A DNA stretch of 64,000 nt from a virus: the IMG/VR virus record IMGVR_UViG_3300035698_007208, positions 33,927 to 97,926 of that record; one strand, written 5' to 3'. The translations under genes were made by a program, and so were the position numbers. The first letter of the stretch is position 1; every line of letters begins with the position of its first letter. Shown here in pieces: positions 1-19,113 of the stretch. The notes below the pieces were generated by a model, which was given only the letters and a program-made list of their open reading frames with translations, had not been told where the DNA came from and ran no database searches.

Positions 1-3000
1 TATTTAAATGATTTAGAAATTGAAGATGATGACCAGTTTGAATTTTATACTGGCATGCTACAAAGTAAAGGAACTATACCAAGTTTAACAAAAATTGCAG
101 CCAGCAACAGTATTATACAAGGATCAATGGTAGTATTTGATGAATGGGCTTTGCGCGTTGGCGATTTTGGTGATTTAGAGAATGAACAGAGTATTGAATT
201 GTCACTTGAAAAAGCAGACATAGTTCAAGATCCGCAATTAATTACGTTAGTGTTTCCAGAAGACACTATTGGTGTCATAGACGCAATTCGAGTACTTGAC
301 ACAAAGCACAAATATAACAGTGTGCCCTTATTAGTAATTGCTCAACCAACCTTAGCGCCAGCAATACAAGCAAGTGCAGAAGCATTATTGGACAATACTG
401 GCGTAATTTCAGGATTTAAAATTATAGAAGAAGGCAGCGGTTATGTTGAGCCAGTTGTAATTCAAGTAGTAGCTGGTGATTTAGTTGTATCAAATGTTGA
501 TGTGGCATTTTCAACTCCAGTTGCACAAAGCTTATTATATTTACCGTCTAACGTAGCTAGCTTAGGCCTAAGCAACATTCTATTATCAGACAACCTAAGT
601 GCTAACGGTATAATAAGTATTGATGTTAGTACAGCCACAGATATTGCTAATGTAGTATCAAGTATCAACACGTCAGCAGCCACCAACGCAAATGTGTCGG
701 CCCTAGTAGTTGAAAATACATATTTAGTTGGCAATATAGAATTGTCGCAAGTTATATTGCAAATTACAGGTAATGATTTTACATTAATTGAAGATGGGGT
801 TACACTTGCTAGTTTAGCAATCACGCCTGGTCGATACGAACCAAAACAACGACATAGTATTAGTACAGTAGACAATCACCCAATACTTGGTACTGGCGCG
901 ACTGAAGAAGGTAATATTACTGTTAAAATTAACAACATTGATCTTCCACATGCTGGCGGTGGAAATTGGGAGTATGATGCAGGGTCACGACAAAACAAGA
1001 GTTATATTATAGGCGACTCATCAGTTTCAGGTATTGATTTTGACACAAATGGAATTTACAGTGGCAATGTTACAATTCCATTAGTTACTCCAATTGATGC
1101 AAATAACACAGCAACCGAAGCTAATGTTTATCGCCATGCGAATGTATTTATAAACGGAACTGAAATTTTAAATTCTGGAGTAACAAGAGCATATGCTATA
1201 ACTACAACTGATTTGATTCTTTATAATGTTGATCAATTACCAGAAGGACAATTATTAGTTGGCGCAAATATAAGTATACACGAACATGCAACAGTTAACT
1301 TAGGAAATGCAGTAATAACTGACATACCGGGTGCAAAGTTAAGTATACGAACTGTAACAAACGATGATATTGCAATACTTACAAAAAGTAAAAGATTATT
1401 TGAAATAAGCGAAGATGCAAAAGGCGATGAAGCAATAGTAATTGACATTGATGACTCGTCACGATTCCTTAAGAAGCCGCTAGGAGTACGAGATAATAAA
1501 CTATGGCCTAGTATGTCAAGTGTTAACCATACTGGAATAACTGATGCTAGATATTTTAATATTCCTAATGCTGGGTATGTAAATAAAGCAAATGTTGATT
1601 TTAGATCATTTGATGTAAGCAGCATTGGTCAAATGTTTAGTGACCAAATTTCAATTCATCCAGAACAAAACGATTTAATACATGTCGCAGTAAGTGAAAA
1701 TTTAGACTGGAATGTTTACAAGTTAGCCGCAGCAAATACTGGCATTAGTTATGTAGAACAAGAAAACGATGACGCGACATCGTATTTATTTACTTCTAAT
1801 AGTTTGTTTGATTATACTGATAGTAATCAACTACAGGAAACAGATTTAAGTAGATATTTAGATTATCATCTTGTGTTAAAGAACTCACAACTAAATGAAA
1901 AATTTGTAGTATGGGTAAATGAGCAAGTAGTTGATAGCAAACAAGTAAGGTTTAGTAATATTAGTGCAACTGTTATGACGGAAGCTAGTGTTACAGAAAT
2001 TGGACCAGAGTCTAATTCTATACTTGCAATAAGCAATATTAATCCTGGAGTAAGTTCGTTTAGCACTGCAACAGCAACAGCCAATATAGACGGCAATGGC
2101 ACTGTACTTATTACAACTGACACATTTGGTGTAGAAGATGGCGATAGTGTTGCGTTCGGCGGCGCACTTGGTAATGCTAATCCGTTATGGGCAAACTCAT
2201 ATATAGTATCAAATGTAACAATTGGTACCTTTACAGTATTAGATGCAGCATTAACAAGTAACATTGATATTGCAAACCTTGTGTATTCTTATTATGGGAA
2301 AACACAAATTGAAAGTGTTGATCATGGATTAAGTTCAGGTGAAATGATTAAGATCGTAGCAGGTGTATATAGTGGTGCATATCTTGTTGAAAGTGCATCA
2401 GCAAATACGTTTGTTATTGATGCCCGTTACTTAAGTGGAGCGGCAACAACAGGTAATATATTGTTAGATAACGTTGTTATAACAGCAATTGGGCATGGAA
2501 TTGTAGATGCATATTCTGGTAAGCGAATAGCAGTACATAATGCAGACCCAAGGTACTATAACCAAGTTTACACGGTAGACAGTGTGACAGCTAATACTAT
2601 ATCAGTTAGTGGCATTTTTGCATTTGCTGATGTTGCAAATGTTATGGCAAATGCAGTGGTAACAACATTAGACCATGATGTTATTAGATTAAATAACAGT
2701 TCAATTAAAATTGACAATTTTAATAGTGTTGACGGCATTGTTGATAGCATTAACCAAGCAGCAGACTTAAGACGAGGATTTATTACCAGAGAAGGTAGTT
2801 TTAGTATGTCAATGCCAATGATGCGATCAAATAGATTGCCAGGCGGTATAACAAGTTCGCAAATAGCAGGTTCCATTCCTTACGTAACAAACTTAAATGG
2901 GTTTGACCAGTCTGGACTAGTTGTAACTGGTAATAGGACTATTAATCCAGATCTCACACGCAAAATTGGATTCAACAATGACGCGGTAGTGAGAGGACAA

Positions 3001-6000
3001 TCTCCTGCACCTAGGACAATAACGAGCGCCGCAAACCAAACACATTCGACTGTATTAAATGTAGGACCATACAGTCAAACGCTCAATAACCAATTAAACC
3101 CGTATGAGGTAAACATTGGGCCAATTAATATACCTAAAATTTCAATAATGGGTCCATTAGAAAATTTTAATCGATCAGTAAATAACCCATCACCTAATAC
3201 CGGTCTTGGGCAATTACCAAATAATAGTGGCGCACCAATTATTAATCCAGCAGCACTGATTGCATTACCAAGCGTGCAACTGTGTACACCTGCAATACCT
3301 GCAATTCCACCGCCGCGTCCACCAAAGCCTGCTGCACCAGCAGTGCCAGCAGTGCCAGCAATACCAGCAGTGCCAGCAATACCAGCATCGCCTGGCGTTC
3401 CTGAAGTGCCAGCAGTACCAGCAGTACCTGAAGTGCTTGCTATCCCAGGAACAGGAACAGGCAGTTGTATACAGTATAATAAATGGGAATACATTGAACA
3501 ATCTACTATGACATCAAATGTGGATGATACTTGGTACTTTATGATACCTATATGTGGTTCTGTTAAGATTATATATGATATGGATTCAGGGGAGGACATC
3601 CTTGATGCTTTTCAAATTACTACAAGGACAGCATTTGGTGGCACTCGTATGGGTGGAACAGATACTGGTGTAAGATTTGCAACAACAGCAGAAAAAGCAC
3701 AGTTATTAAAAGGAAACAACGGAGCCGCAGCTTCTTCCTTTACATCCAATTTACCAAAAGATTTTATTAAAACAAACCCAGGGTCAAAATTTTGCGGAGT
3801 TATTGAATTTGATTTTAAACCAACCGCAGGCTCGTATCTACGCATCGACGTTGATAAAAATAGCAGTATTTATAAATTTTTAATAGGCTACCCATCAACA
3901 GTAGGTGTAGTTAATCCGCAACAAAACACAAACCCAGGCCAGCCTGCAAACATACCACCATATAATGGTGTAGGTGTGGTTCCAAACATGAATACTATAC
4001 CTCAAACGCCAATAATACAGCCAGCAGGTACGCCAATCAATAAACTCAAAAAAGTAAATGGCGGTATGCGTGATGATGAATTTAATTTTAGAAATGGCGC
4101 CGGAGGCGGTAGGTATTCTAATGCCGGCGAGTATTATGTTTCTAATTTTAGTGGATTTAGTTCAGCACCAATGGCCGGTTTTGGATTTATTCCAAGTGTG
4201 TTTAAAAAGACAGTAAAAATAACTTCACCATTAAATGTTAACAGACATCAAGCGTTATCATCAGGCCGGTATGTCAATACAGTAGTGCATCGTGTTTCTG
4301 GTGGAATTATAATACCATTTGCAGATCGACTGCCAACTCCAATATTCATAGGAGCAAAGCCAATAAAAGGTTTAGATTTAATTAATGATCCATTATTTCG
4401 TTTGGCTGGTGACATAGCAAATGGACAAAATGTACATTTTAATTACAATCCAAGAAAAATAAGCAGTGCAAATTACACAATGGACAGTATTGGCTTACCA
4501 GCAAGCATTAATACGGTTACATCTAATGGCAGCATTGGTCCTAATGGCAGCATTAATCCGGTTACACCTAATGGCAGCATTGGTCCTAATGGCAGCATTG
4601 GTCCTAATGGCAGCATTGGTCCTAATGGCAAGGTTACTAGCACCACACCAGGAGTATTTGATTACACGCCATTAGCTGGTAACTTGCCTTCAACAGTATT
4701 GGGATCCCCACTTGTGAGTTTAGAATTAGCACCACCAACTATAGCAGACGCCATAGACTCTCCAGTTGATGTTGATAATGTAGAATTTAATAACATTCCT
4801 ATTATTACTCTTATTCCAAAAGTGAAGACAGTGGACGGATCATTTGTGCCAGCAGGTCCAACTTGTTATTGCCCGGTACATAGACCGTCGCCAAGCGTAA
4901 CAATTAGTCCATCTGATCTTATTGGTGCAACACCAGGCGATCAAATATTAATTAACAACACTGCTGTAACTATACAATCTAATGTAGATGCTACTATGAA
5001 TTCAATTGAATGTGCAATTGGTTCAGGGTTTACAACAATGCGCACAACAAGAGACTACAACGAAGCAATTAAGTTAATATCTTGCACAAATGCACCAATT
5101 ACATTTAAAGACGGATGCAGGGGTGGCGTTTATAAAGAAGTACTTGATTTTCATGTTGTAAAGTCGTTCAGTTTATCATCAACAAGCAATGCATTAGTAG
5201 TAGCAGCGTCAACTGGGTATGGTGCTGGTAATACAGCTACATTTGTTACTCCGTCAGTAACTTATACTAGATACAGTGAAGAAGGGGAAGTACAAGATAC
5301 ACTACCTCAAACTAGTACAACAACAACAGGTAGCATATTAACTGCTCAAACAGCACACACTGGCGGCGGCGGTTATTCTGTTGGCGATAGATTGCGTGTA
5401 GTTGGCGGCGTACCAATTGCTTCGCCATATGGTAGCATTACTGAGTTATGTATTGGCGATCCTGGATCAAATTATTCCGAAGCTGCTAATGTTAAAATTT
5501 ATATTGGTGACGGGTCCACTCCTGGAACAGGCGCAGTAGTTGGTAATGTAGTGCTTAATGCAAATGGTGGAATTTCAACTATTGAATTAATAAATTCAGG
5601 AATTGGATATGATGGCGCCCGCCAACCAACAGTAAGGGTTGTTGATATTGGTGCAGCAACAGCACCAACCATTGCAAGTCCAGCTAAAGTGTCAGTTAAA
5701 ATTGGAACAGAAACAATTGGACGCAATGGTTTATCAATAACATCTTATGGCCTTCCTGAGCGAGTTGCTAAGTTTGTAGTAACACAAATAGATGCTACTG
5801 GTGCAATTTTAGGATTACAGTCAATTGATAGGGGCATTTATAAACAGTTTCCAAGTGACTTAACGACTGGTATACCATTAGAATATGATGCTGTAAATTT
5901 AGGTGATGAATGGGGAGGAGAACTTCCACCATCAAGTTCAACAGGGCTGGGTGGGTTTGACCCACTTAACAACCATGCCACATTGCCATCGCCTGGTGGA

Positions 6001-9000
6001 TATAATCCGCTAACTGGTGATTTTGCTGGCGGTACCGGCGCAAGGGTATTTTTAACAGCTCGAGAAATTCCAGACTGTTCGGAAAAGGGTGACGCAAGAA
6101 GCAAGATGGGACTTCCATCTAGCACAGGCGCAGTAAGCATACCGTCACATTTAGCTGATTTACTTAATACTGGCTTGTTGAACGGTGGTTATACTCCAAC
6201 CGATATATCTTTTGGAGTAGGATCAATTAATGATGACTTTGATACTATTACTTTAGAATCGCCAACATTTGACGGAATTGAAATTGGGGAATTGACCCCT
6301 GGATTCCTTGATAAAATAGGCATACCGCCCGGCGATTATAATCCAGACATGGGGGTGCTTTCAGCAGTGAATACTACTCCATTGAATGATAGTAACGGTA
6401 CTACCCCTGACAATATTGGAAACAATAACGGCAATGGAAACAATAACGGCAATGGAACCAATGGAAACAATGGAAACAATGGAAACACTGCTATTAATGG
6501 TATTGGCGCTAGAACGGCATTGCCAATAGAATCAATTGCAATATACGGAGTTGACAATGTTGGTGGAAGTAGTGGAACAAATGGCCAAGACACAAATAGT
6601 GTACTTGGTACAGCAAGTGTCCAATACATTACTGATTTATTTCAATACGAATTAAGAACACTCGCAGGCAATCCAGTTGTAGCAAATAACCAAGCCCAGC
6701 AAACGTCTGTGTTGGTATTTGAAAGTCAGCGATATAATACTGAAAATGATATTGCTATTGCTAACGTGTCATATGCAGACATCCCTTCAACCATAGCAGA
6801 GTTTGCTAATGTTTGGATTGATGATTATATGACTACAGGGTGGGCTTATCTTGAGGGTAACGTAACACAGCGGAATCAAACGTCATTAGTAGATCCAAAA
6901 TTTATTAATAATGTTATTATTTATGACAGTACAACTGGTGAAAAGGAATTTGATTATGATATATATGACCCGTTTAAAGGTGTATTGCCTGCATTTATAG
7001 AAGCAGCTCTTAATTATATTAGTTCTAATGATCCAGTTGTATATAACAGCACAAAGGCATTTTTTGGAAGAAAAAATATTGGACAATTGTGGTGGGATAC
7101 TAGTTCTGTTAGATATAACTGGTATGAACAAGGACCAAATAGAGAGCGTTGGTTAAATTGGGGATCGTCATTCCCAGGTTCAGCTATTACTATTTACGAA
7201 TGGGTTGAAAGTGTAAAAACTCCATTAGAATATACTGGTACTGGTACACCTAAAAATGGCAGTGAGTTCTTAATAGAACGACGATTGAATCCAACTACAA
7301 ACAACCACCAAAACTATTACTATTACTGGGTACAAAACGTTCAAGAAATCAATATACAAGCAAAAACTCAATATAATAGACAGTTTACTGCATTAGCAAT
7401 AGCTAGGTACATTTCAGACCCTAATGGTCAGGGATTGAATACTATTGGTTTTATTAGTAGTGGAGATTCCGATTCTACAAATCTTGCAAGTATGATGATG
7501 TCAAACTTAAGTAATACATTAAGAGAAGACGAACAAAATATTCAAATTAATCTTAGTAGAAATTTAAATCCAATTGGCCTAAAGCATGTTGCTTGGAAAT
7601 TATTAAGAGAAGGCGATAATAATAGTGAAATACCAGAAGATTTAAGCGCAAAAATGATCGATAGTTTGTGTGAATTAAACAGTGTTGGCCAAACAGTTCC
7701 TGAACCAAATTTAAGCGTTGTTGAACGGTTTGGTGTACAGTTTCGACCAAGGCAGACAATATTTAAAAATCCTAACGAGGCTCGACGAGCATTGCATTTT
7801 GTTTTAAACGAAATATTGGCAGACTTTAAATTGAATTCTTTATTCCCAACATGGGATGATGCGCTACCAAGCAAAACATACATTAAGTCTGTTAATTGGT
7901 ACGCAGTAGAACGAATAGACGGTACAACTAATGAAAAAATATATTATAACGCATCGTTCAAGCCGGTTTATACAGTATCAAGTGCTGGTGAATTGGAGGC
8001 TATTAAGCGTAGCAGTTTAGCAGACGGTACGGTAATAATGGTTCGATCAAACTTAACTGAAAGATTCCAACTTTGGAGATTTAACGCAACTAAGTCAGCA
8101 TTTGAACAAATTGCAATTGAAAACGAAACAGCAGAACTATCAACTACAATCTTTACTGACGATGTTAATGCAGTAATGCAAGCTGAATTACGCGCATTTT
8201 TAGAAACATTAAGAGATGACATTTTCCTTGGAACTTCACTATGGAACGAAGTATTTTTTGAGATGTTAAGATATGCAATAGCAGAACAGCCAGAACTGGA
8301 TTGGGCATTTAAAACTTCATACTTATTTGTAGAAAAAGAAGAAGAAGATTTGATTCAACGCAAAGGATTTAACCCTGATAACTTCTCACCAGTATTAGAT
8401 TATTTAAACGAAGTCAAGCCTTACACGGCTAAAATACGTGGTTACAAAGACGGTAAAAAGACACCAATATTTTTCATTAAGGACCAAATGATAAGTGACT
8501 TTGATAGGCCTCCATATCCTGATTCATCGTTAGGTGAAATAAGAATACTTGATAATAATGATACAGTTGACACTAGTATACTAGCAACAGATAGTCGTTA
8601 TATTAAGTGGAACTCTGCAATTAACGATGATAATTCACCAATAAGGACTGGCAATATTAATTTAGTATTTGATAGAGTTGATTGGAGATTATTAGAACCA
8701 TATCATGATACGTCTGTATCCAGTTATTCGCGCAGTATAGCAAATAACATTGCTACATTAAATGCAGAATCATTAGATGACGTAAGTGCTAATTCTACTT
8801 ATTCAATGTCAAGTAGAATTTTTAAGTTTGACCCAGATGTGCGATCACAATTTAATACGGACATTGATTCATATTTTGGTAACGGCGCAAGCGCAAATTC
8901 AAGTATTACAGAAAATAGCATGCAATTGCTATCAGCAATACAAGATGGTGGATTAACAACTACACTAACTTTAGTACAAGAAAAAGTAGGTGGTGGATAT

Positions 9001-10152
9001 CGAGGGGAATTGCTTGATGCTAATGTATTTACTAGAGTAGTAAGTGGTACAGATGCTCTTACTCTACAGTCTGTATTTGGGTACGATACTACACCATGGG
9101 ACAATACACTTGGATTTGGATCAGAATGGGATACAAATATTGAAGTTGAAAATTATGAAGGTATTTTTGATGGCAATGTAACATTTAGACGTGATGGTGT
9201 TACATTTGAAGGATTTGATGGTGTTACTTTTAAGAAACTAATATATGGTGAAGAGCGCCCTGAAGAATTAGTAATGTTATCACCACTAGAAAACTTCATT
9301 ATGAATGTAAAAACATCTATTGCTGCATTTGATGCAAATGGCTTAATAGTTGACACTATTAGTGTCGGCCCATTTGATGCTAATGTGAGTCCATCAGATG
9401 CAAATGGTACAGTTACAGTAACAAGTATAATTTCAACTCCTTTACTAAATGATAATGATATAATTAATTTAGCAGGCGAAACAACTACTCCAATAACAGG
9501 CTCGTATGTTATATCAAACATTAATATATCAGCTCGTAGTTTTACTATTGACTTAGCTAATGTTGATGCAAATATAATAACAACAGCAGGTAATATATTG
9601 TTAACAAGTGGAGTTTCAGCAGTTGATGTAGAATTCATAGTACACCAAGATTTGTTTGGCGGAAGCGAGTATATCAGAGTGTTATCTGATAGAAGTACAA
9701 GTACCAATTCAGCAACACCTATTGCGATATGGGATGAAGAAATTGCTGTAGTGGACGCAACAAAGCTACCAATACCAACCCTTGCTGTGCCTGGTGTTGT
9801 ATGGTTAAATCATTCAGAACGAATAGAGTATAGGACAACAATTAATAATGTGCTTATTGATATTACACGTGGTACACGTGGAACTACTATATCAAGTCAC
9901 CCATCGGGCATAGTTATTGATGATGGCTCATCAGCACAAGTATTTAACAGTGAATTAAATCTTGGTTTTGAAAGTCGTAACCCAGAAACGGCTACTTGGT
10001 TAAACACAAGTGGCACCATTTCGTTAAGTTTGTCAGACATAACAAACAGAAGTAACAGTAACCAAATTGCAGCGTTTTTACAGGGAGAACTTACTGTAAG
10101 TATTGGTTGGGATGCAAGAGGATGGGATAGTGATGCATTTGATAGTGCATAA
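1..10152 (+). CDS. Giant virion structural protein, probable baseplate wedge/hub-type protein; 5' end lies outside the window
   Basis: Frame is open from base 1 (YLNDLEIEDDDQFEFYTG precedes the tracked Met at 55). >3365 aa, beta-rich, with G-x-G-Y turn repeats. C-terminal blocks (YDPFKG, GQLWWDTS, WAFKTS, YLNEVKPY, RGTRGT) recall large baseplate proteins of Rak2-like jumbo phages. Lies upstream of tail genes. Confidence 0.75.
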   Translation, partial: YLNDLEIEDDDQFEFYTGMLQSKGTIPSLTKIAASNSIIQGSMVVFDEWALRVGDFGDLENEQSIELSLEKADIVQDPQLITLVFPEDTIGVIDAIRVLDTKHKYNSVPLLVIAQPTLAPAIQASAEALLDNTGVISGFKIIEEGSGYVEPVVIQVVAGDLVVSNVDVAFSTPVAQSLLYLPSNVASLGLSNILLSDNLSANGIISIDVSTATDIANVVSSINTSAATNANVSALVVENTYLVGNIELSQVILQITGNDFTLIEDGVTLASLAITPGRYEPKQRHSISTVDNHPILGTGATEEGNITVKINNIDLPHAGGGNWEYDAGSRQNKSYIIGDSSVSGIDFDTNGIYSGNVTIPLVTPIDANNTATEANVYRHANVFINGTEILNSGVTRAYAITTTDLILYNVDQLPEGQLLVGANISIHEHATVNLGNAVITDIPGAKLSIRTVTNDDIAILTKSKRLFEISEDAKGDEAIVIDIDDSSRFLKKPLGVRDNKLWPSMSSVNHTGITDARYFNIPNAGYVNKANVDFRSFDVSSIGQMFSDQISIHPEQNDLIHVAVSENLDWNVYKLAAANTGISYVEQENDDATSYLFTSNSLFDYTDSNQLQETDLSRYLDYHLVLKNSQLNEKFVVWVNEQVVDSKQVRFSNISATVMTEASVTEIGPESNSILAISNINPGVSSFSTATATANIDGNGTVLITTDTFGVEDGDSVAFGGALGNANPLWANSYIVSNVTIGTFTVLDAALTSNIDIANLVYSYYGKTQIESVDHGLSSGEMIKIVAGVYSGAYLVESASANTFVIDARYLSGAATTGNILLDNVVITAIGHGIVDAYSGKRIAVHNADPRYYNQVYTVDSVTANTISVSGIFAFADVANVMANAVVTTLDHDVIRLNNSSIKIDNFNSVDGIVDSINQAADLRRGFITREGSFSMSMPMMRSNRLPGGITSSQIAGSIPYVTNLNGFDQSGLVVTGNRTINPDLTRKIGFNNDAVVRGQSPAPRTITSAANQTHSTVLNVGPYSQTLNNQLNPYEVNIGPINIPKISIMGPLENFNRSVNNPSPNTGLGQLPNNSGAPIINPAALIALPSVQLCTPAIPAIPPPRPPKPAAPAVPAVPAIPAVPAIPASPGVPEVPAVPAVPEVLAIPGTGTGSCIQYNKWEYIEQSTMTSNVDDTWYFMIPICGSVKIIYDMDSGEDILDAFQITTRTAFGGTRMGGTDTGVRFATTAEKAQLLKGNNGAAASSFTSNLPKDFIKTNPGSKFCGVIEFDFKPTAGSYLRIDVDKNSSIYKFLIGYPSTVGVVNPQQNTNPGQPANIPPYNGVGVVPNMNTIPQTPIIQPAGTPINKLKKVNGGMRDDEFNFRNGAGGGRYSNAGEYYVSNFSGFSSAPMAGFGFIPSVFKKTVKITSPLNVNRHQALSSGRYVNTVVHRVSGGIIIPFADRLPTPIFIGAKPIKGLDLINDPLFRLAGDIANGQNVHFNYNPRKISSANYTMDSIGLPASINTVTSNGSIGPNGSINPVTPNGSIGPNGSIGPNGSIGPNGKVTSTTPGVFDYTPLAGNLPSTVLGSPLVSLELAPPTIADAIDSPVDVDNVEFNNIPIITLIPKVKTVDGSFVPAGPTCYCPVHRPSPSVTISPSDLIGATPGDQILINNTAVTIQSNVDATMNSIECAIGSGFTTMRTTRDYNEAIKLISCTNAPITFKDGCRGGVYKEVLDFHVVKSFSLSSTSNALVVAASTGYGAGNTATFVTPSVTYTRYSEEGEVQDTLPQTSTTTTGSILTAQTAHTGGGGYSVGDRLRVVGGVPIASPYGSITELCIGDPGSNYSEAANVKIYIGDGSTPGTGAVVGNVVLNANGGISTIELINSGIGYDGARQPTVRVVDIGAATAPTIASPAKVSVKIGTETIGRNGLSITSYGLPERVAKFVVTQIDATGAILGLQSIDRGIYKQFPSDLTTGIPLEYDAVNLGDEWGGELPPSSSTGLGGFDPLNNHATLPSPGGYNPLTGDFAGGTGARVFLTAREIPDCSEKGDARSKMGLPSSTGAVSIPSHLADLLNTGLLNGGYTPTDISFGVGSINDDFDTITLESPTFDGIEIGELTPGFLDKIGIPPGDYNPDMGVLSAVNTTPLNDSNGTTPDNIGNNNGNGNNNGNGTNGNNGNNGNTAINGIGARTALPIESIAIYGVDNVGGSSGTNGQDTNSVLGTASVQYITDLFQYELRTLAGNPVVANNQAQQTSVLVFESQRYNTENDIAIANVSYADIPSTIAEFANVWIDDYMTTGWAYLEGNVTQRNQTSLVDPKFINNVIIYDSTTGEKEFDYDIYDPFKGVLPAFIEAALNYISSNDPVVYNSTKAFFGRKNIGQLWWDTSSVRYNWYEQGPNRERWLNWGSSFPGSAITIYEWVESVKTPLEYTGTGTPKNGSEFLIERRLNPTTNNHQNYYYYWVQNVQEINIQAKTQYNRQFTALAIARYISDPNGQGLNTIGFISSGDSDSTNLASMMMSNLSNTLREDEQNIQINLSRNLNPIGLKHVAWKLLREGDNNSEIPEDLSAKMIDSLCELNSVGQTVPEPNLSVVERFGVQFRPRQTIFKNPNEARRALHFVLNEILADFKLNSLFPTWDDALPSKTYIKSVNWYAVERIDGTTNEKIYYNASFKPVYTVSSAGELEAIKRSSLADGTVIMVRSNLTERFQLWRFNATKSAFEQIAIENETAELSTTIFTDDVNAVMQAELRAFLETLRDDIFLGTSLWNEVFFEMLRYAIAEQPELDWAFKTSYLFVEKEEEDLIQRKGFNPDNFSPVLDYLNEVKPYTAKIRGYKDGKKTPIFFIKDQMISDFDRPPYPDSSLGEIRILDNNDTVDTSILATDSRYIKWNSAINDDNSPIRTGNINLVFDRVDWRLLEPYHDTSVSSYSRSIANNIATLNAESLDDVSANSTYSMSSRIFKFDPDVRSQFNTDIDSYFGNGASANSSITENSMQLLSAIQDGGLTTTLTLVQEKVGGGYRGELLDANVFTRVVSGTDALTLQSVFGYDTTPWDNTLGFGSEWDTNIEVENYEGIFDGNVTFRRDGVTFEGFDGVTFKKLIYGEERPEELVMLSPLENFIMNVKTSIAAFDANGLIVDTISVGPFDANVSPSDANGTVTVTSIISTPLLNDNDIINLAGETTTPITGSYVISNINISARSFTIDLANVDANIITTAGNILLTSGVSAVDVEFIVHQDLFGGSEYIRVLSDRSTSTNSATPIAIWDEEIAVVDATKLPIPTLAVPGVVWLNHSERIEYRTTINNVLIDITRGTRGTTISSHPSGIVIDDGSSAQVFNSELNLGFESRNPETATWLNTSGTISLSLSDITNRSNSNQIAAFLQGELTVSIGWDARGWDSDAFDSA
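3286..3437 (+). repeat. In-frame 9-bp tandem repeat encoding a (PAV/PAI)n proline-rich linker
   Basis: CCAGCAGTG/CCAGCAATA units; protein PAIPAIPPPRPPKPAAPAVPAVPAIPAVPAIP. Confidence 0.9.
4504..4630 (+). repeat. In-frame 18-bp tandem repeat encoding (NGSIGP)n
   Basis: AATGGCAGCATTGGTCCT repeated, with a higher-order duplication AGCATTAATxCGGTTACAxCT. Confidence 0.9.
6418..6487 (+). repeat. In-frame Asn/Gly microsatellite-like repeat
   Basis: GGAAACAAT/AACGGCAAT units encoding GNNNGNGNNNGNGTNGNNGNNGN. Confidence 0.85.
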
Positions 10153-10177
10153 TAAAACTTAGTTTTAATGGAAGATG

Positions 10178-10184
10178 ATAAATA
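10178..10184 (+). promoter_or_regulatory. Putative late promoter ATAAATA (T4 TATAAATA-like)
   Basis: ATAAATA 5 nt upstream of ATG 10190; the motif recurs intergenically across the window. Confidence 0.65.
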
Positions 10185-10189
10185 GTTAT

Positions 10190-10333
10190 ATGTCAAATAC
10201 ACAAGAACCTAAGCAAGAACAAACGAAAGACGACGATCATGCAATTGATTGTCTCGGATTAAACATGAGTGGTCATATTTTAATCCGAGACAAAGAAACT
10301 AAAGAAGAATTAGTTAATAAGAGAGCTGAATAA
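10190..10333 (+). CDS. 47-aa small protein resembling the N-terminus of the downstream gene (not in ORF track)
   Basis: MSNTQEPKQEQTKDDDHAIDCLGLNMSGHILIRDKETKEELVNKRAE*; its stop abuts ATG 10334. Confidence 0.7.
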   Translation: MSNTQEPKQEQTKDDDHAIDCLGLNMSGHILIRDKETKEELVNKRAE

Positions 10334-10894
10334 ATGAATTTAAATATGAAAGGTCATGTTTTAGTAAAAGATAAAGAATCTGGTGAAGTGTTAGCTGACC
10401 AAAATAACGCTATTCATTACGGAAATATGGCAAGAATCGTAGCATTAGCACTTAATAACACTGCCGATGCTTATATTAATTTTGTAGCATTTGGAAATGG
10501 TGGGACTAGTGTAGATACTTCAGGTAAGGTACTGTATAAAACACCAAGAGTGAGTGAGGCATATGATGCCTCAAGTAACTTATACAATACTACTTATAAC
10601 AAAGACATATTTCCTGGTGATTCCACAAACAAAATAGAAATTATAACCGGTGCCTCATATACTGATATTAAAATGACAGTTACTTTAGGATTTTCAGAGC
10701 CTGCAGGGCAAGAGGTATTTGATACAAGTATTACAAATGAAGGTGAGTACATTTTTGATGAATTAGGTGTATTTACTAACAGTACGGATTTTGCAGACGC
10801 AATAATGCTAACGCATGTTATCTTTCACCCTGTACAAAAAAGTCAAAACCGAGTGATAGAAATAATTTATACAATCAGAATACAGTTAAGTTAA
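10334..10894 (+). CDS. Putative baseplate/tail structural protein
   Basis: AFGNGG...FDELGVF...THVIFHPVQKS motif typical of jumbo-phage tail/baseplate proteins; position in structural block. Confidence 0.6.
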   Translation: MNLNMKGHVLVKDKESGEVLADQNNAIHYGNMARIVALALNNTADAYINFVAFGNGGTSVDTSGKVLYKTPRVSEAYDASSNLYNTTYNKDIFPGDSTNKIEIITGASYTDIKMTVTLGFSEPAGQEVFDTSITNEGEYIFDELGVFTNSTDFADAIMLTHVIFHPVQKSQNRVIEIIYTIRIQLS

Positions 10895-10906
10895 CGAGGA
10901 AACAAA

Positions 10907-12751
10907 ATGGCATATTCAGTAACAACCACAGATGGATTAACACCCATAACAGTAGCGGATACTACTGTAGACAGTAGCCAATTATCGTTAGCGTTAATTG
11001 GAAGAAATGCAACAAACTACGGTGAACCACTTGTCCGAAACTTTGTTCATCATTTAGAAAACTTTTCAAATAGTACACCACCAACCCCCAGCACTGTATT
11101 ACAGGGACAACTTTGGTGGAATAAAACAGAAAAAACATTGCGTGTTTACGATGGCACAGTATGGAAACGAAACACTGCAATTCCAGTATCAGCATCTGAA
11201 CTAACTGATAGCTTAGTGGGTGGTACTGGTTATTTTAATAGTGTTACGCAAGAATTAAAAATGTACAATGGTACTGAATTTAAAAACGCACTTGTACCGG
11301 GCGGCACAGTTACAGCAGAATATGCTGGCAATGTTACAGCCTCAGGCAATGCTAGTAACTATGGCGCAAAGGTAGAAACTTTGTTTTTGACCTCGTCAGG
11401 TCCTTCACCAGCAATTAAACCAGTATTGGTAATGAAATACGTAAGTGATGGAACCGCAGGTGGAGCAGGAATTGGGTCACCAGACGTAAATCATGAAAGT
11501 GCTAACACAACCATTATGGCTATTTTTAGCTCACATGATACCTTTAGTGTAGATGTATCAAGTGATTTTTATGACGAATTAAGTAACGTAAATAGTTTTG
11601 GAGCATCAATTACACAAGGCTTTACATTGCGAAATGACTACACTGATTCGGTTGTAGCACAAGCATCGCTTGCCAACGTAGCAAATGTGGCAAATGCTAT
11701 TGATACAGGTGTTATTGTAGACGGAGAAGATATTATTCATGTTAGTAGAGGATATGTTCCTACATCTGACAGTACATTCAATCTTGGCAGTACAACATTT
11801 CGATTTGGTGAAGGCCACTTTGATACATTATTTTTAGGCGGCAATGTTGCAGGTAATACACCATTAGCGATAGTTGGTAATGTTGACATTGGTAGTAACG
11901 TGTCAAGAGTTAATGCATTGTATGCTAAAGATTTAGATGTTTCAGGCAACGTAGTATTCGGCGCTGGCGTACAAAATATTGGTTCAAATGCAGCACCATT
12001 AGAAAACTTTTTTGTTGCAAATGTGAAAATGACAACTGGTAGTATTGCAACAACACCTAGTGCAAACATAGATATAGCAAATAAATTATATGTAGATAAC
12101 CAAGTATCAGGTGTTTCATCTGGATTTGTTGATAAGGTTTCAGCAGAAAGTATTGGCGGAGCAAAAACATTCACAAGTGCAGTTGCAGCACCAACATTTT
12201 CTGGTGTTGCCACCCAAATCCAAACATCACAGCGAGCAGTTGCGGCAACACACTATTTAACATTTGTTGCAACTGACAACTCAACAGCTTCAGGCGAAAC
12301 ACTGTATACTGATTCAGGTGTTTCTTATAATCCATCAACTAACGTGCTGTCAACAACTGCCACTGAAGCAAAATATGCTGACGTTGCAGAAATATACAGT
12401 TCGGACGAACTTTATGAACCAGGAACCGTAGTCAAGTTAGGTGGAGAAGCAGAAGTAACAGTTACAACTTCACGGTATGACACTGCTGTGTTTGGTGTGG
12501 TATCAACAGCCCCTGCATATTTAATGAATAAAGATGCTACTGGCTTGCCAATTGCATTAGTTGGAAGAGTGCCAGTTAAAGTAACAGGCACAGTTAATAA
12601 AGGGGACAGAATAATATCCTCCAATATACCTGGAATTGCAGAATCAATTGGAATCGATGGGTATGACGCCCGAGGTATTATAGGCCGGGCATTGCAAGAT
12701 AAACATACAGATGATCTTGCATTAATTGAAGTAGTAATAGGAGTTAAATAA
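10907..12751 (+). CDS. Tail fibre-type protein with C-terminal peptidase-G2-like intramolecular chaperone domain
   Basis: N-terminal GRN..YGE..NFVHHLENF...GQLWW module; ANKLYVD fibre motif; C-terminal YADVAE..PGTVV..GVVSTAPAYLMN..IALVGRVPVKV; SD GAGGA. Confidence 0.75.
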   Translation: MAYSVTTTDGLTPITVADTTVDSSQLSLALIGRNATNYGEPLVRNFVHHLENFSNSTPPTPSTVLQGQLWWNKTEKTLRVYDGTVWKRNTAIPVSASELTDSLVGGTGYFNSVTQELKMYNGTEFKNALVPGGTVTAEYAGNVTASGNASNYGAKVETLFLTSSGPSPAIKPVLVMKYVSDGTAGGAGIGSPDVNHESANTTIMAIFSSHDTFSVDVSSDFYDELSNVNSFGASITQGFTLRNDYTDSVVAQASLANVANVANAIDTGVIVDGEDIIHVSRGYVPTSDSTFNLGSTTFRFGEGHFDTLFLGGNVAGNTPLAIVGNVDIGSNVSRVNALYAKDLDVSGNVVFGAGVQNIGSNAAPLENFFVANVKMTTGSIATTPSANIDIANKLYVDNQVSGVSSGFVDKVSAESIGGAKTFTSAVAAPTFSGVATQIQTSQRAVAATHYLTFVATDNSTASGETLYTDSGVSYNPSTNVLSTTATEAKYADVAEIYSSDELYEPGTVVKLGGEAEVTVTTSRYDTAVFGVVSTAPAYLMNKDATGLPIALVGRVPVKVTGTVNKGDRIISSNIPGIAESIGIDGYDARGIIGRALQDKHTDDLALIEVVIGVK

Positions 12752-13095
12752 TGAACAATAACGATAAAATGCGCCAGCTAATTAAATTGATAGAATCTGC
12801 AGAAGACCAAGCAATAACATCTCACATTACAACAAAGCGTGGTGAAGAAATTGAGGTTGTTGTAAGTTTTAGGTCATATCCTGGCCGCCCTTCAACGCAA
12901 TTTGAACCAGAAGAATATGCAGAAACTGAAATTACATCAGTTAAGTTAAATGGGCAAGATATACATGGTGACCTTAAGGACCACACAATAGCGCGGTTTA
13001 ACGACGAAATTGAATCTTGGATGGCCGAGCAAGACCCAGATGATGGCTATGGTGACTATATGTATGATATGAAAAAAGACAATCGAGAGGACTAG
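12751..13095 (+). CDS. Acidic hypothetical protein, possibly head-packaged
   Basis: TAATG coupling; N-terminal MRQLIKLIE motif. Confidence 0.6.
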   Translation: MNNNDKMRQLIKLIESAEDQAITSHITTKRGEEIEVVVSFRSYPGRPSTQFEPEEYAETEITSVKLNGQDIHGDLKDHTIARFNDEIESWMAEQDPDDGYGDYMYDMKKDNRED

Positions 13096-13098
13096 AAA

Positions 13099-14073
13099 AT
13101 GGCAACTGGTGCTGATATATTAGTTACTGGCGGGACTTCCATGAAAAATGTAGTGGCGGTTACAGATTCAATAGAAGCTATTGATTTTAATAAACCAAAT
13201 CAAAATATGGGATCACTGTTAGGTTCTCCACCAGATCTTGAACTTGGTACTTTTATAGAATCGCTTACTTTTGGTTACGGACAAGGTGGATCAGGTGTTG
13301 CAAACGCAGTAATCGGCGCAAATATATTAGGTACTGGTGCGGCTGGTGCATTTAAGGATTTACAGGATGACATACAATCGCTTTGTGCATTTACTGGACA
13401 GCCATTGCGTACCGGCGTTGGTACTGATGTAACAACTAGCGACAAGATTACAGCATCAACATGGAACAACTTAATGTTAAATGTTAAAGATTGCTGGGAT
13501 AATAGGTTTATCCCAGCAAGTAGGACAGCATCAACAGATGCTATAGTAACTAGAACCACGTCATGGACAAATACACTAACACAAATTACAACATGGACAT
13601 TTTCAACAGAAGAAGATTGTCGTTCATTTTTTAATGGAGGTGGCGGATTAGGGGTAAGTGCCTCCCGTACAGGTGGGTCCTCTTCTACGCAAAATACATC
13701 ATTGTCTACTAGATTAACTGCATTGAGTGATGTGTTTTTGTACCACAATACTACTATTTCCGGCGCTGGTACTAATGCTAATATAGGATTTTATGAGTTG
13801 ACTACATCAAATCAACAATTAGTCCAATATTTTGGTGCAGCATCGCCATATACCAGCGATCAAGTTCGGGTTTTAGCGAAAATAGACAATATTACTAATC
13901 CTAAAGTAGTAACAATTACTATGGAGTTAACAGACGGCAGTGACAGCTTAGTGGATGCTGCACCAGATGGCACACTTAGTATAAATGCAAGAAGGAACCA
14001 GCCAGATGCTAATGGTTCAGGTTTTTCTTTTGCAACGGCATCGTTTACTGCAAATCCAATAACCGGATCTTAA
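13099..14073 (+). CDS. Putative tail/virion structural protein
   Basis: Thr/Gly/Ser-rich; GYGQ, ITASTWNNL and RSFFNGGG motifs; last gene before a terminator. Confidence 0.6.
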   Translation: MATGADILVTGGTSMKNVVAVTDSIEAIDFNKPNQNMGSLLGSPPDLELGTFIESLTFGYGQGGSGVANAVIGANILGTGAAGAFKDLQDDIQSLCAFTGQPLRTGVGTDVTTSDKITASTWNNLMLNVKDCWDNRFIPASRTASTDAIVTRTTSWTNTLTQITTWTFSTEEDCRSFFNGGGGLGVSASRTGGSSSTQNTSLSTRLTALSDVFLYHNTTISGAGTNANIGFYELTTSNQQLVQYFGAASPYTSDQVRVLAKIDNITNPKVVTITMELTDGSDSLVDAAPDGTLSINARRNQPDANGSGFSFATASFTANPITGS

Positions 14074-14087
14074 CAGTTTACTGAACG

Positions 14088-14118
14088 AGCCAGTAATCCA
14101 CGTTACTGGCTTTTTTTT
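14088..14118 (+). terminator. Rho-independent terminator
   Basis: AGCCAGTAA-TCCACG-TTACTGGCT followed by a T run. Confidence 0.9.
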
Positions 14119-14122
14119 GACT

Positions 14123-14128
14123 TAAATA
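14123..14128 (+). promoter_or_regulatory. Putative late promoter TAAATA
   Basis: Directly after the terminator, 5 nt before ATG 14134, no SD. Confidence 0.55.
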
Positions 14129-14133
14129 GTAGT

Positions 14134-14490
14134 ATGAGCACAAAATTAACTAAAGCATTACAATTTTCAAACACATTAATGACGATTAATAATCATAAGG
14201 CTATTTTGTTAGCTAAAACCGAAGCAATGCTAAGTTACAGCGTAAATGGTGGCACGTTTACTGTTAACCGCGAACTATTGGGCTTTTTACATTCGTGTAT
14301 GGAGTTAAATCAGCTGGTGTTGCTTGATGATAACAAAAATCCAATTCTAATTACAGATATTCCTGAGTTTTACGATGAAGTAAAAAGTAGATACTTTGAA
14401 GTAGTGAATGATTATCACGCCGAATATGAAAAATTACGCAAGCAGCGAAAAATACACACGGTATTAGATTTAAACAAAGATGGCGGGTAA
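14134..14490 (+). CDS. Hypothetical protein heading the glycosyltransferase operon
   Basis: 118-aa ORF, NGGTFTV..LLDDNKNPI. Confidence 0.7.
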   Translation: MSTKLTKALQFSNTLMTINNHKAILLAKTEAMLSYSVNGGTFTVNRELLGFLHSCMELNQLVLLDDNKNPILITDIPEFYDEVKSRYFEVVNDYHAEYEKLRKQRKIHTVLDLNKDGG

Positions 14491-15412
14491 CATGCCAGAC
14501 CAAGCTGCTGCAATTTTAGGAAGCAAAACACCCACACGAGGCGTAATGATGTTTGCGCACAACAACACGGAGATTGACTACTTTAAACTCGCAGTAGTTA
14601 ACGCGTTACTCGTAAAAAAACACATGGGTATTAATAACATTACTTTAGTAACTGATTCCTTTAGTTTAGCATACGCCGAACAAACATTAGGCAAAGACTT
14701 AATAAAAGCTGCAATTAATAATATTGTGGTTTCTGACAAGACGAGTGTATTTCAGTCAAAAAATATACGAACATATAAAGATACAGTGCATCATACTAAA
14801 AGTTTACCCTTCCATAATTTTAACAGATGTGATGCGTATGACATATCGCCATACGATGAAACAATTCTGATAGATGCAGATTATTTAATCCTAAGTGACA
14901 CGCTAAATCAATGCTGGGGCCATAATAATGAACTAATGATGAATTGGAAATGGCAAGACGTAATGCATGAACGAAAATACACAGGATTGGATCGCTTGCA
15001 TGATATAGGAATTACAATGTATTGGGCAACGGTTGTTTATTTTCGCAAAACAGCACACAATGAGTCATTCTTTAATTGTGTGCAGCATGTACGAAGCAAC
15101 ACTAAATTTTATAAAGAATTATACCAATGGGATGGTAAGTTATATCGTAACGATTACAGTTTTTCAATTGCAGCACATATGATGTCAGGATTTATAGACA
15201 AGGGAATCCCACAACTGCCAACAACCTTATATAAAACATTTGATACTGACGATGTTCATTCTGTTGACAATACTAACAGTCTTGTGTTATACTTAGAAAA
15301 GCCTAATAGTTCTGGAGATTTTATATTGGCACGATGGACCGGTATAGATTTGCATGTAATGAATAAATGGGCGTTTAATCGCATAAGTGACCAATTATTG
15401 GAAGAGTTATGA
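14480..15412 (+). CDS. GT-A fold glycosyltransferase (GT8/mannosyltransferase-like)
   Basis: SPYDETILIDAD DxD motif, RND..FSIA; paralogue of 16611. Confidence 0.7.
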   Translation: MAGNMPDQAAAILGSKTPTRGVMMFAHNNTEIDYFKLAVVNALLVKKHMGINNITLVTDSFSLAYAEQTLGKDLIKAAINNIVVSDKTSVFQSKNIRTYKDTVHHTKSLPFHNFNRCDAYDISPYDETILIDADYLILSDTLNQCWGHNNELMMNWKWQDVMHERKYTGLDRLHDIGITMYWATVVYFRKTAHNESFFNCVQHVRSNTKFYKELYQWDGKLYRNDYSFSIAAHMMSGFIDKGIPQLPTTLYKTFDTDDVHSVDNTNSLVLYLEKPNSSGDFILARWTGIDLHVMNKWAFNRISDQLLEEL

Positions 15413-15639
15413 ATAAAACAGAATACACTATTGTAGATACTGCTGACCCCCTTAACAAACTGAAAGTTGTATTTGTTCACCGAACTTGCAAATGTATGAG
15501 CCAAGGGTGTGTAGATGATGAACTACAAATTTGGGAAGAGGGTGACGAATATCCCTATAGGCTGCAATTGCCCCAATTAATGACGCCTATTATTGAGGGT
15601 TTATTAAATAAAGAATACAAATTGGAAGAATTGAAATGA
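15409..15639 (+). CDS. Hypothetical protein
   Basis: ATGA-coupled ORF. Confidence 0.55.
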   Translation: MNKTEYTIVDTADPLNKLKVVFVHRTCKCMSQGCVDDELQIWEEGDEYPYRLQLPQLMTPIIEGLLNKEYKLEELK

Positions 15640-15947
15640 TAGTGTCATGGCAAAAGAAAGCATTAGAAAAACGATGGAATAGCCTGACGCAACTTAAAGA
15701 TTATATAATAACGAACAAATTAGAAAAGATCTTAAGGTTTACCGGATCTCAATTAGAAACAGACAAGGCGTATTATGGATTATACGCTGGAGAAATAAGT
15801 GTTACACTTAAGGATAAAACCAAACCTCGTAAAATAAAAACATCACCAATTTTAGCTACTGCAACAGCAAAGGCAAGTACGCCAAAAACTGGGAAAGTAG
15901 TTAAAAAAGTAGTTAAAAAAGTAATAGATAAGAAGAAAAAGAAATGA
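15636..15947 (+). CDS. Basic hypothetical protein with Lys-rich tail
   Basis: ATGA-coupled; C-terminal KVVKKVVKKVIDKKKKK. Confidence 0.6.
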   Translation: MIVSWQKKALEKRWNSLTQLKDYIITNKLEKILRFTGSQLETDKAYYGLYAGEISVTLKDKTKPRKIKTSPILATATAKASTPKTGKVVKKVVKKVIDKKKKK

Positions 15948-16610: not shown

Positions 16611-17495
16611 ATGTCAAGAGGGTATATTTGCATAGCTCAAAATAATTCAACAACTGACTATCTTAGGCAGGCATACGCCCTTGCGTTGAATTTAAAGTTA
16701 ACACAAAGTGGTGTCAGTAACTTAACTGTATGTGTAGATGCTGATACTAAGAAGTTAATTAAGCCAAAACACAGAAAGGTATTTGATAAGGTTGTAGATA
16801 TTCCGTGGAACGATGATGCAAAGGACGCAGAGTGGAAAGTTAACAATAAATGGAAATTTTATCACATGACTCCGTATGACGAAACTGTCATACTAGACAC
16901 TGATATGATATTTCCGACAGATGTAAGCTATTGGTGGGATATTCTGTCAGAGCGCGATGTTTGGTCTACTACTAATGTAAAAACGTATAGAGGCGAGGAC
17001 GTTGGCGCTGATAGGCATTATAGGAAGTACTTTTTAGCAAATAATTTACCAAACGTATATACTGCATTCTTTTATTTTAAAAAATCAGAACTAGCAAGTG
17101 AATTATTTGCTATGATTGAAATCGTATTCCAGCATTGGCAACGCATGTACCACAAATACATGCCTAAAGGCAAACCTGATCGGCTAAGTGGTGATGTATC
17201 GTATGCGTTAGCTATGCAATTACTAGACATAACACATTTATGTACAAAACACAATGTCAAGCATGTTCCTACCTTTGCGCACATGAAGAGCAATGTACAA
17301 CACATACCGTCAAGTAAAATTAGTGATAAGTGGTCAGAAACATTACCTACATATTATAATACTTGTCGGGATTTTAAAATTGGTAACTTTTCACAAATTT
17401 ATCCGTTCCATTATGTGGAAAAAGATTGGATAACTCCTGAAATGATAGAACAAATGGAGAAGGAATATGATTTCACCAAAAGCACTAGCCCGTAA
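16611..17495 (+). CDS. GT-A fold glycosyltransferase
   Basis: TPYDETVILDTD DxD motif, FAHMK, PFHY; paralogue of 14480. Confidence 0.7.
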   Translation: MSRGYICIAQNNSTTDYLRQAYALALNLKLTQSGVSNLTVCVDADTKKLIKPKHRKVFDKVVDIPWNDDAKDAEWKVNNKWKFYHMTPYDETVILDTDMIFPTDVSYWWDILSERDVWSTTNVKTYRGEDVGADRHYRKYFLANNLPNVYTAFFYFKKSELASELFAMIEIVFQHWQRMYHKYMPKGKPDRLSGDVSYALAMQLLDITHLCTKHNVKHVPTFAHMKSNVQHIPSSKISDKWSETLPTYYNTCRDFKIGNFSQIYPFHYVEKDWITPEMIEQMEKEYDFTKSTSP

Positions 17496-18126: not shown

Positions 18127-18138
18127 TAGAGAAAAAGC

Positions 18139-19113
18139 ATGGCAGAAATAGACGTAACAGAATTAGACATATTTTATATAAGTTATGATGAACCAAACGC
18201 TGAAGAAAATTGGGCAGACCTGTTGAATAAGGTTCCTTGGGCAAAACGGGTGCATGGCATTAAAGGATTTGACGCAGCACATAAGGAATGCGCAAATCAA
18301 AGTGAAACAGATCGATTTATTACTGTAGATGGCGACAATAAGGTAATGGAAGACTTTTTTGAACAAGTGCTTGATGTTCCAGATACTGATCATGATGGTA
18401 ACTCGTTAGACGAAAGTATATTCTCATGGAATGCAAAAAACTTACTTAATGGATTAGTGTATGGTAACGGTGGAATTAAATGTTGGCCCACGAACTATGC
18501 TAAAAATATGAAAACTCATGAAGCAGCAGATGATGGCGAAGGCATGGAGTTTTGTTGGAAGCTTAACTATATTCAATTAAATGACACTTTTTCTGAAATA
18601 CACCAAACATCAACACCCTTTCAAGCATTTAGATCAGGATTTAGAGAAGGTGTAAAGATGAGTCTCGCACAAGGCCTACACGTTGAGCCAGCAGACTTTA
18701 AAAATAAAATTTGGTGGCAAAATTTTAATAGGTTACAGGTATGGTGTAATATTGGAAACGATATACAAAATGGAATATGGGCAATGTATGGTGCAAGACT
18801 TGGCTGTAAAATGACCGTACTAGATAAGTTTGATACTAACTTGATTAGCGATTATGAATGGTTTAATCAGTTTTTTGATAACTTAAGCAAGACAGTCAAA
18901 ACACATGACGGTAAGTGGCAATCAGATGAGCCTGATCTAACAACACAGCATTTAGGAGAACTTTTAAATGAAGAAATACCTGGTATGGTATTAACGCAAC
19001 CAAATAAAAAAGTAAGCGAATTTTTTAAGCTTACGTACACTAATCCGCCCCGCTGGGGAGTAATGATTCGTGAAAAACAAATACAGGCGCTATTGGAAGC
19101 ACAGGCAAAATAA
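18139..19113 (+). CDS. Putative GT-A glycosyltransferase
   Basis: FYISYDEP, RVHGIKG.DAAH, ITVDGD (DxD), NGLVYGNGGIK, AFRSGFRE; homologous to the C-terminal domain of 34614. Confidence 0.7.
   Translation: MAEIDVTELDIFYISYDEPNAEENWADLLNKVPWAKRVHGIKGFDAAHKECANQSETDRFITVDGDNKVMEDFFEQVLDVPDTDHDGNSLDESIFSWNAKNLLNGLVYGNGGIKCWPTNYAKNMKTHEAADDGEGMEFCWKLNYIQLNDTFSEIHQTSTPFQAFRSGFREGVKMSLAQGLHVEPADFKNKIWWQNFNRLQVWCNIGNDIQNGIWAMYGARLGCKMTVLDKFDTNLISDYEWFNQFFDNLSKTVKTHDGKWQSDEPDLTTQHLGELLNEEIPGMVLTQPNKKVSEFFKLTYTNPPRWGVMIREKQIQALLEAQAK

Follow-up and report, generated by a model that had tools for sequence, protein, structure and literature searches.

A recurring small residue-Asn-Val/Ile word in two virion proteins of an uncultured giant T4-like marine phage: a probable strand-cap signature

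Two virion proteins encoded in one stretch of viral DNA, a giant protein of the baseplate region and a fibre, repeatedly place Asn after a small residue and before a β-branched one, and genes for glycosyltransferase-like proteins lie downstream of them. Do these Asn residues serve as acceptors for phage-encoded glycosylation, as the preliminary description of the locus proposed, or do they reflect the way in which the two proteins are built? The window, meaning the whole 64,000-nucleotide stretch analysed here, comprises bases 33927-97926 of a 97.9-kilobase (kb) viral contig (IMG/VR record IMGVR_UViG_3300035698_007208; G+C content 33-40%). We consider it probable that the word, in the form [Ala/Gly/Ser]-Asn-[Val/Ile], is a structural signature of strand starts or turn caps in repeated β modules of the giant protein and of the fibre shaft.

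The source is an uncultured giant T4-like marine phage. No near-identical DNA close to the contig was found among cultured phages; its protein similarities lead to jumbo, distantly T4-like myoviruses (PA5oct, Atu_ph07, Phosso and SCTP-2). Most homologues belong to metagenome assemblies of ENA, JGI and Logan, and a few to records of Tara Oceans. The giant protein is encoded by an open reading frame (ORF) of 5279 residues (contig 28239-44078) that starts 5.7 kb upstream of the window. The preliminary description had begun it at an ATG at position 55 (ORF 55-10152, 3365 residues), which proves to be an internal Met; residue numbers given below for the giant protein are those of this window ORF, and other ORFs are named by their first position in the window.

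Excess of an Asn-centred word

Motif counts were compared with a null model of 300-500 composition-preserving shuffles per ORF. The word [AGS]-N-[VIT] occurred 41 times in the giant window ORF against 16.8 expected (z 6.2) and 13 times in the 614-residue fibre against 3.2 expected (z 5.6). The excess survived shuffling inside 25- or 50-residue blocks, which keeps regional composition (z 5.6-5.8). When each of the 20 amino acids was placed at the centre of [AGS]-X-[VIT], Asn alone was enriched, and Asp was depleted (5 versus 12.3).

The position after Asn (+1) proved more selective than had been proposed. Thr, Leu, Met and Phe were not enriched there, and [AGS]-N-T stood at 6 versus 5.9 expected in the giant protein and 2 versus 1.3 in the fibre. 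The sharpened word [AGS]-N-[V/I], with 35 occurrences versus 11 expected and 11 versus 1.9, respectively, reached three to six times its chance level in the two proteins. Because the word had been picked after looking at the data, it was ranked among all class-X-class tripeptides, where it came first of 2534 in the giant protein and first of 719 in the fibre. The claim that the virion proteins are rich in [A/G/S]-N-[V/I/T] stands (z about 6, shuffles beaten), with Val and Ile carrying the signal; Thr follows Asn at chance level.

The excess is confined within the genome. Pooled, the 54 non-virion ORFs showed no clear excess of [AGS]-N-[VIT] (39 versus 30.7, z 1.6), which bears out the earlier remark that the pattern is not obvious in the metabolic genes. 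The first 1914 residues of the giant protein, outside the window, likewise held 7 sites versus 7.3 expected.

Two other proteins encoded upstream on the contig also carry the word. The 1392-residue protein directly before the giant one (contig 24054-28232) has a milder excess of [AGS]-N-[VI] (10 versus 3.8, z 3.2), and a 286-residue protein farther upstream (contig 16276-17136) has 4 occurrences of [AGS]-N-[VIT] versus 0.8 (z 3.5). A different word, [ST]-[GA]-S, was not enriched in the giant protein or the fibre; ORF 13099 has 5 versus 1.4 (z 3.1).

Sites on predicted structures and in diverged repeats

Mapping of the sites onto an AlphaFold model, which had been suggested with the original proposal, was carried out for residues 120-900 of the giant protein using an alignment of 25 homologues. 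Model residues 23-320 and 520-755 reached predicted local distance difference test scores (pLDDT) in the 80s. Residues 142-439 and 639-874 were predicted to form small, short-stranded β domains and not a β-helix. Foldseek returned nothing below 1e-3 for this model; VIA-align found a FliD D2-D3-like domain (Z 10, root-mean-square deviation 2.3 over 97 residues), a six-stranded barrel of the type found in phi92 endosialidase and riboflavin synthase (Z 7-9), and an ENA-fibre-like sandwich (Z about 7). The model and the fold searches rule out a β-helix Asn ladder, which had been named as a finding that would speak against glycosylation, in the modelled part of the giant protein, as distinct from the fibre shaft. 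The AlphaFold model of the fibre monomer had a confidence below 50 across most of residues 142-390, an expected outcome because a trimeric shaft was modelled as a monomer.

In the confident parts of the giant model, 12 of 19 motif Asn residues were no more than one residue away from where a β strand begins. This closeness was shared by 34 of 134 residues preceding any [VIT] (p 0.0015 versus motif Asn), by 4 of 31 other Asn residues (p 0.0003) and by 6 of the 32 central residues of [AGS]-x-[VIT] in which x was not Asn. Hydrophobicity alternated after the Asn (0.80 at +1, 0.30 at +2 and 0.48 at +3, with +4 polar). This alternation suggests that the core residues of the strand begin with the Val or Ile, and that the Asn side chain probably faces outward.

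The sites are clustered (Table 1), and part of the clustering reflects repeats. Eight sites fall in pairs at residues 661/677, 720/736, 784/801 and 847/862 of the giant protein, 15-17 residues apart within pairs and 59-64 between pairs. A MAFFT alignment of the four segments revealed a diverged repeat of about 62 residues in which all eight sites, two per repeat, stand at matching positions; Asn occupies these columns in 19-23 of 26 aligned rows. A BLAST self-comparison for internal repeats found none, so simple internal sequence repeats do not cause the excess: the repeats become visible only through site spacing and MAFFT, and are therefore likely to be old. The 62-residue repeat block had no match among cultured phages. 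A further segment rich in sites, residues 2990-3181, is kept in those close relatives in which the giant protein has the excess too.

The same type of module is present in the fibre. Residues 349-436 of the fibre align with residues 699-798 of the giant protein at 33% identity (E 0.015, in a single comparison), and both Asn words align. Because the module type is common to the two proteins, their excesses are not independent. Variable inserts in the giant proteins of relatives carry a unit of the type 'Y-x-V-S-N-V-T...T-F-T-V', and distant fibres have a shaft expanded into GN[IV]T repeats, each about 17 residues long, and contain as many as 22 sites in 670 residues. One fibre with (GNVQ)n repeats is encoded on a short contig that holds none of the transferase genes. 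The distant fibre repeat had no match in the PDB. In one distant fibre (L066:8633-10420), a sub-threshold match to PF06598, 'Chlorovirus glycoprotein repeat' (E 7e-4, 20 bits versus a cutoff of 27), covers an 'F-x-G-N-G-S-x-L-T-G-I' stretch directly after the GN[IV]T repeats.

All 25 aligned homologues of the giant protein share the excess, down to 38% identity in the region (region z 2.5-10.5). Of the 22 site columns, 20 have Asn as their most frequent residue; Asp is the main alternative, and replacements are scattered by site and not by lineage. Where Asn is replaced, Asp accounts for 36% of cases at motif columns versus 23% at other Asn columns, and the +1 position remains Val, Ile or Thr in 73% of the alignment cells that lack the central Asn. 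Exchange with Asp together with a retained +1 residue would be expected of a structural Asx cap that leads into a core residue. Across the fibre family the distribution of the excess is patchy: it is present in the closest kin and in some distant relatives, and at about 50% identity the homologues carry Asp in the corresponding columns.

The excess, the position of the sites in the model, the repeats, the module shared between the two proteins and the substitution pattern form the basis of the structural reading. Both proteins would be assembled from small β modules that are ancient, strongly diverged and present in many copies, among them the unit of about 62 residues common to both and the GN[IV]T shaft repeats expanded in relatives. 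In each module the small residue would end a loop, Asn would open a β strand or immediately precede its first residue, and the Val or Ile after it would be the first strand residue to face the core. We infer that the Asn caps a strand or turn through Asx-type hydrogen bonding and does not accept a modification. The diverged modules may keep little except these strand-cap residues, and the word would recur because both proteins consist of many such copies.

Several results weigh against the structural reading. A plain strand start does not obviously require a small residue before the Asn, yet the -1 residue is small in 82% of alignment cells with Asn and in 48% of those without. Motif Asn columns are conserved no better than other Asn columns (0.61 versus 0.56, p 0.4). 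An outward-facing Asn, as the strand parity suggests, would leave its side chain free as an acceptor. Finally, the β-rich tail proteins of T4 that served as a control (gp5-gp12, wac and gp34-gp38) showed no excess of the Asn word (maximum z 1.7). The T4 control also rules out a generic property of T4-type tail proteins, and the word is therefore specific to this module family. Two of the T4 proteins show an excess of the Asp version, [AGS]-D-[VIT], namely gp10 (7 versus 2.2, z 3.3) and fibritin, the wac product (7 versus 1.7, z 4.5); in these two the Asn version stays at chance level.

Surface Asn residues might also have been selected for another reason, such as contacts of the outer modules with a ligand or polysaccharide, a different modification of Asn, or hydrogen-bond ladders between subunits once the trimer or baseplate is assembled. 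This would fit an excess that is restricted to outward-facing tail proteins, is missing from the first part of the giant protein, and is lineage-specific and not seen in T4. It is nevertheless unlikely: there is no partner residue, enzyme or ligand to point to, and the strand-start position and the exchange with Asp are already explained more simply by structure.

If the structural reading is true, these proteins are an ordinary but unusually clean case of diverged tail β modules that keep only their strand-cap residues. It would follow that an excess of a sequon-like word in a virion protein made of repeats should be checked against structural controls before the sites are taken to be modified. 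The word would also help to delimit otherwise unrecognisable modules in baseplate proteins of 5000 residues.

The transferase cassette and the case for glycosylation

The homologues of the giant protein (5160-5900 residues) carry PF14240, and the protein has distant relatives among the virion proteins of jumbo phages, PA5oct and Atu_ph07 included. The fibre resembles proteins of Atu_ph07 and a protein of PA5oct whose annotation reads 'baseplate wedge subunit and tail pin'; its C-terminal domain matched capsid decoration proteins (E 6e-5) and a C-terminal fragment of phi29 gp12 in Foldseek. A Pfam scan of five virion ORFs of this phage found nothing; PF13884 or PF11962 is present in some fibre homologues. 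ORF 10334, which lies between the two genes, adjoins the fibre gene in nearly all of 80 related loci and is upstream of it in all but one.

Table 1. Positions in the window of the virion genes, transferase-like genes and motif-rich segments
Feature	Position	Strand	Basis or content
Giant virion (baseplate-region) protein, C-terminal 3383 residues	1..10152	+	phrog_10938 (virion structural protein)
Motif-dense block of giant protein (residues 140-870 of window ORF)	472..2664	+	22 of 41 sites; small β domains
Four cryptic tandem repeats of ~62 residues (residues 645-893), two sites each ~16 residues apart	1987..2733	+	Spacing, MAFFT
Second site cluster of giant protein, near C-terminus (residues 2990-3181)	9022..9597	+	7 sites
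Conserved 186-residue protein in giant/fibre interval	10334..10894	+	phrog_11259 match; 0 motif sites
Tail fibre or baseplate fibre, 614 residues	10907..12751	+	PHROG tail-fibre matches; 258 homologues
Motif-rich part of fibre shaft (residues 142-390)	11330..12076	+	12 of 13 fibre sites
Fibre C-terminal domain, intramolecular-chaperone- or decoration-like	12344..12751	+	pLDDT 75-90; Foldseek
GT8-like glycosyltransferase, paralogue 1	14480..15412	+	Joint profile to glycogenin-1; phrog_1903
GT8-like glycosyltransferase, paralogue 2	16611..17495	+	Joint profile; phrog_1903; ESM Atlas
Conserved DxD protein, probably GT-A-type transferase	18139..19113	+	Invariant D64, D66, N67; Atlas

The genes run in the order giant protein, 10334, fibre, 13099, 14134, two GT8-like genes, 17467, the DxD gene (18139) and a radical SAM gene (21740). 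This order, which behind the giant gene covers 10334-23200, is kept in most of the 80 related viral loci, whose G+C content spans 29-52%. It is a conserved core late cassette, directly behind the fibre genes, that includes the transferases.

The assignment of the transferases came from profile and cluster comparisons. A joint profile of 14480 and 16611 with their homologues (A4, 25 sequences) matched glycogenin-1 and -2 over profile positions 3-113, with E values of 8e-8 to 4e-6 (best 8.4e-8), and D98 is invariant inside a consensus 'L-D-A-D'. The nearest named ESM Atlas clusters to 16611 were GT8 and Nucleotid_trans (0.96). The Pfam GT8 model stayed below threshold for both proteins, and neither they nor 18139, searched singly, had a match in the PDB. 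Judged by these alignments, the pair resembles GT8 enzymes across the predicted nucleotide-sugar-binding N-terminal half, including the putative acidic metal-binding motif.

In 18139, D64-x-D66-N67 is invariant among 16 homologues, down to 36% identity. Its top Atlas cluster (0.99, possibly its own) is automatically named 'Glycosyltransferase 2-like', and the nearest cluster with a Pfam family reaches only 0.87; no match was found in the PDB by sequence or profile, or in Pfam. These comparisons lend support to the adjacent glycosyltransferase cluster that the preliminary description had recognised, in the shape of the GT8-like pair and the DxD protein.

Among cultured phages, the only homologue of 18139 is a protein of RsoM2USA, a jumbo phage of Ralstonia, which is annotated as hypothetical (43% identity, covering 94% of the length). 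The tblastn matches of a 1097-residue protein (34614-37907) coincide with ORF 18139 in related loci, and this protein therefore contains an 18139-like (DxD) unit; its Pfam match to a GT2-like family is weak (E 0.017). Downstream genes for sugar-nucleotide and tailoring enzymes were recognised by Pfam, with matches to UDP-glucose dehydrogenase-like, radical SAM, cupin, nucleotidyltransferase-kinase and carbamoyltransferase families. Four paralogues of phrog_13607 (23152-24885, 24882-25715, 25712-26683 and 28779-29663) belong to no Pfam family, and one of the phrog_13607 paralogues is fused to a HAD-phosphatase-like C-terminus.

In the glycosylation reading, the word would be a sequon: the GT8-like pair and the DxD transferase would attach sugars, in the cytoplasm, to surface Asn residues at strand starts, the downstream sugar-synthesis genes would feed the cassette, and the outcome would be a sugar-coated baseplate and fibre. 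Such a reading would account for a single word that ranks above thousands of others in two virion proteins and is missing from the non-virion genes, and for the covariation of the small -1 residue with Asn. Its enzymes are syntenic in most of the related loci, and the GT8-like pair matches glycogenin, itself a protein-glycosylating enzyme. The probably outward-facing Asn and the lack of a β-helix ladder in the giant protein would likewise suit an acceptor, and chloroviruses set a precedent by glycosylating Asn at non-canonical sites (PMC9614988).

If it were true, the system would represent a new class of N-glycosylation for the proteins of bacteria and their viruses, and an abundant marine phage group would have a sugar-coated tail, with consequences for host recognition and virion stability. 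We nonetheless regard the reading as improbable. The claim in its full extent, that the word is the acceptor of a phage-encoded cytoplasmic Asn-glycosylation by these enzymes across a large uncultured clade of marine jumbo T4-like phages, is more doubtful still.

One set of objections concerns enzymes and sites. No enzyme of these families is known to form an Asn-sugar bond; the known Asn glycosyltransferases are oligosaccharyltransferases of the STT3/PglB type and the GT41 N-glycosyltransferase (NGT). Pfam scans of 31 window ORFs (55-39319), about half of those in the window, found no glycosyltransferase, including no GT41 enzyme and no oligosaccharyltransferase. The canonical sequons (N-x-S/T, D/E-x-N-x-S/T and NTxT) were not enriched, or weakly so in one protein: N-[not P]-[ST] gave 57 versus 46.5 in the giant protein (z 1.7) and 10 versus 8.1 in the fibre (z 0.7). 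Asp, the main replacement, cannot be N-glycosylated. The motif Asn residues stand at strand starts, at matching positions in diverged repeats, and the residue after them is retained where the Asn is lost.

A second set concerns the distribution of the word among related phages. In close relatives the giant protein shows the excess (z 2-9), often without an excess in the fibre; in a clade with 42-52% G+C the excess is found only in the fibre (z 4-7.4), with the giant protein at a z of about -1. Nine loci have the full cassette and an excess in neither protein (L017, L021, L025, L042, L049, L053, L068, L069 and L078). Glycosylation would gain from five loci (L035, L036, L038, L048 and L076) that have no cassette within 10 kb downstream and show no excess, and a search of the whole records of L035, L038, L048, L076 and L046 found no transferase homologue. 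These cassette-less loci, however, all belong to a single clade, are fragments with a completeness of 10-25% and do not have the modules either, so they amount to at most one event of co-occurrence. Among relatives with adequate downstream sequence, none had the excess without the transferases; the sole candidate, L045, is a 13-kb fragment.

The co-occurrence of the excess with the glycosyltransferase cluster, suggested at the outset, thus met no clean counterexample, but the cassette is found without the excess, and the giant protein and the fibre are uncoupled across clades. Because the two proteins are uncoupled and many cassette-bearing phages lack the excess, we argue that it follows module content and not the enzymes. 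What speaks positively for glycosylation is limited to adjacency. A cassette of transferases behind the fibre gene in most of 80 loci merits a search for its targets whatever the role of the motif.

That the word is a by-product of composition or mutation bias, with Asp codons turning into Asn codons at tolerant positions, or of a word at the DNA level, is very improbable: the genome is AT-rich, with 35-39% G+C, and Asp stands at Asn-equivalent columns in many fibre homologues and is itself depleted in this context here, but the excess outlasts composition-preserving and local shuffling, is strongest for the fibre in the G+C-richer relatives and is lacking in this genome's non-virion genes, and the codons at the motif sites are diverse, which places the signal at the protein level and rules out a DNA word.

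Comparison with known systems

The nearest viral case is that of the chlorovirus PBCV-1, whose protein Vp54 is glycosylated at the atypical sites NTGT, NTET, NTAT and NIPG by an Asn-transferase that is itself unknown (PMC9614988). The likeness lies in a virus-encoded, cytoplasmic glycosylation, independent of the secretory route of the host and aimed at Asn outside N-x-S/T, which for this phage is only proposed; one of the four Vp54 sites is also N-I. The enzymes differ. At the sequence level the analogy drawn at first with (A/G)N(T/I)-type sites fails: besides the lack of enrichment of Thr at +1, NTxT is at chance (3 versus 2.0 in the giant protein and 0 versus 0.5 in the fibre), and the PBCV-1 pattern as a whole (NTxT, NIPG) is not enriched.

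Among bacteria, the nearest mechanism is that of HMW1C/NGT (GT41), a soluble enzyme that decorates many Asn residues in N-x-S/T of a large, β-rich surface adhesin. It differs in that N-x-S/T is not enriched here and that no GT41 enzyme was found among the 31 scanned ORFs, several of which have no family. As for phages, Freeman and colleagues reportedly found in 2023 that glycosyltransferases of mycobacteriophages glycosylate the virion, on subunits of the capsid and tail tube and not on Asn in this kind of word. Their system has no gene or sequence similarity to that of this phage; it does offer a precedent for phages that coat their own virion proteins with sugar by means of their own transferases.

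The remaining parallels are structural. In the Asn ladder of right-handed parallel β-helices (pectate-lyase fold, PbH1), the local sequence looks alike, with a small residue, Asn, and then Val or Ile leading into a strand. The giant protein differs in its FliD D2-D3-like, barrel and ENA-like modelled domains and in an Asn that shares its parity with polar, outward positions. Trimeric stalks of fibres and tailspikes differ in that the word also fills globular β domains of the giant protein, and not only a shaft, and in that sequence comparisons of the repeat gave no match to a solved structure or to a Pfam repeat family. The fibre resembles them in two respects: its C-terminal domain resembles those of fibres with an intramolecular chaperone, and its motif-rich part carries a degenerate repeat exactly where the monomer model fails.

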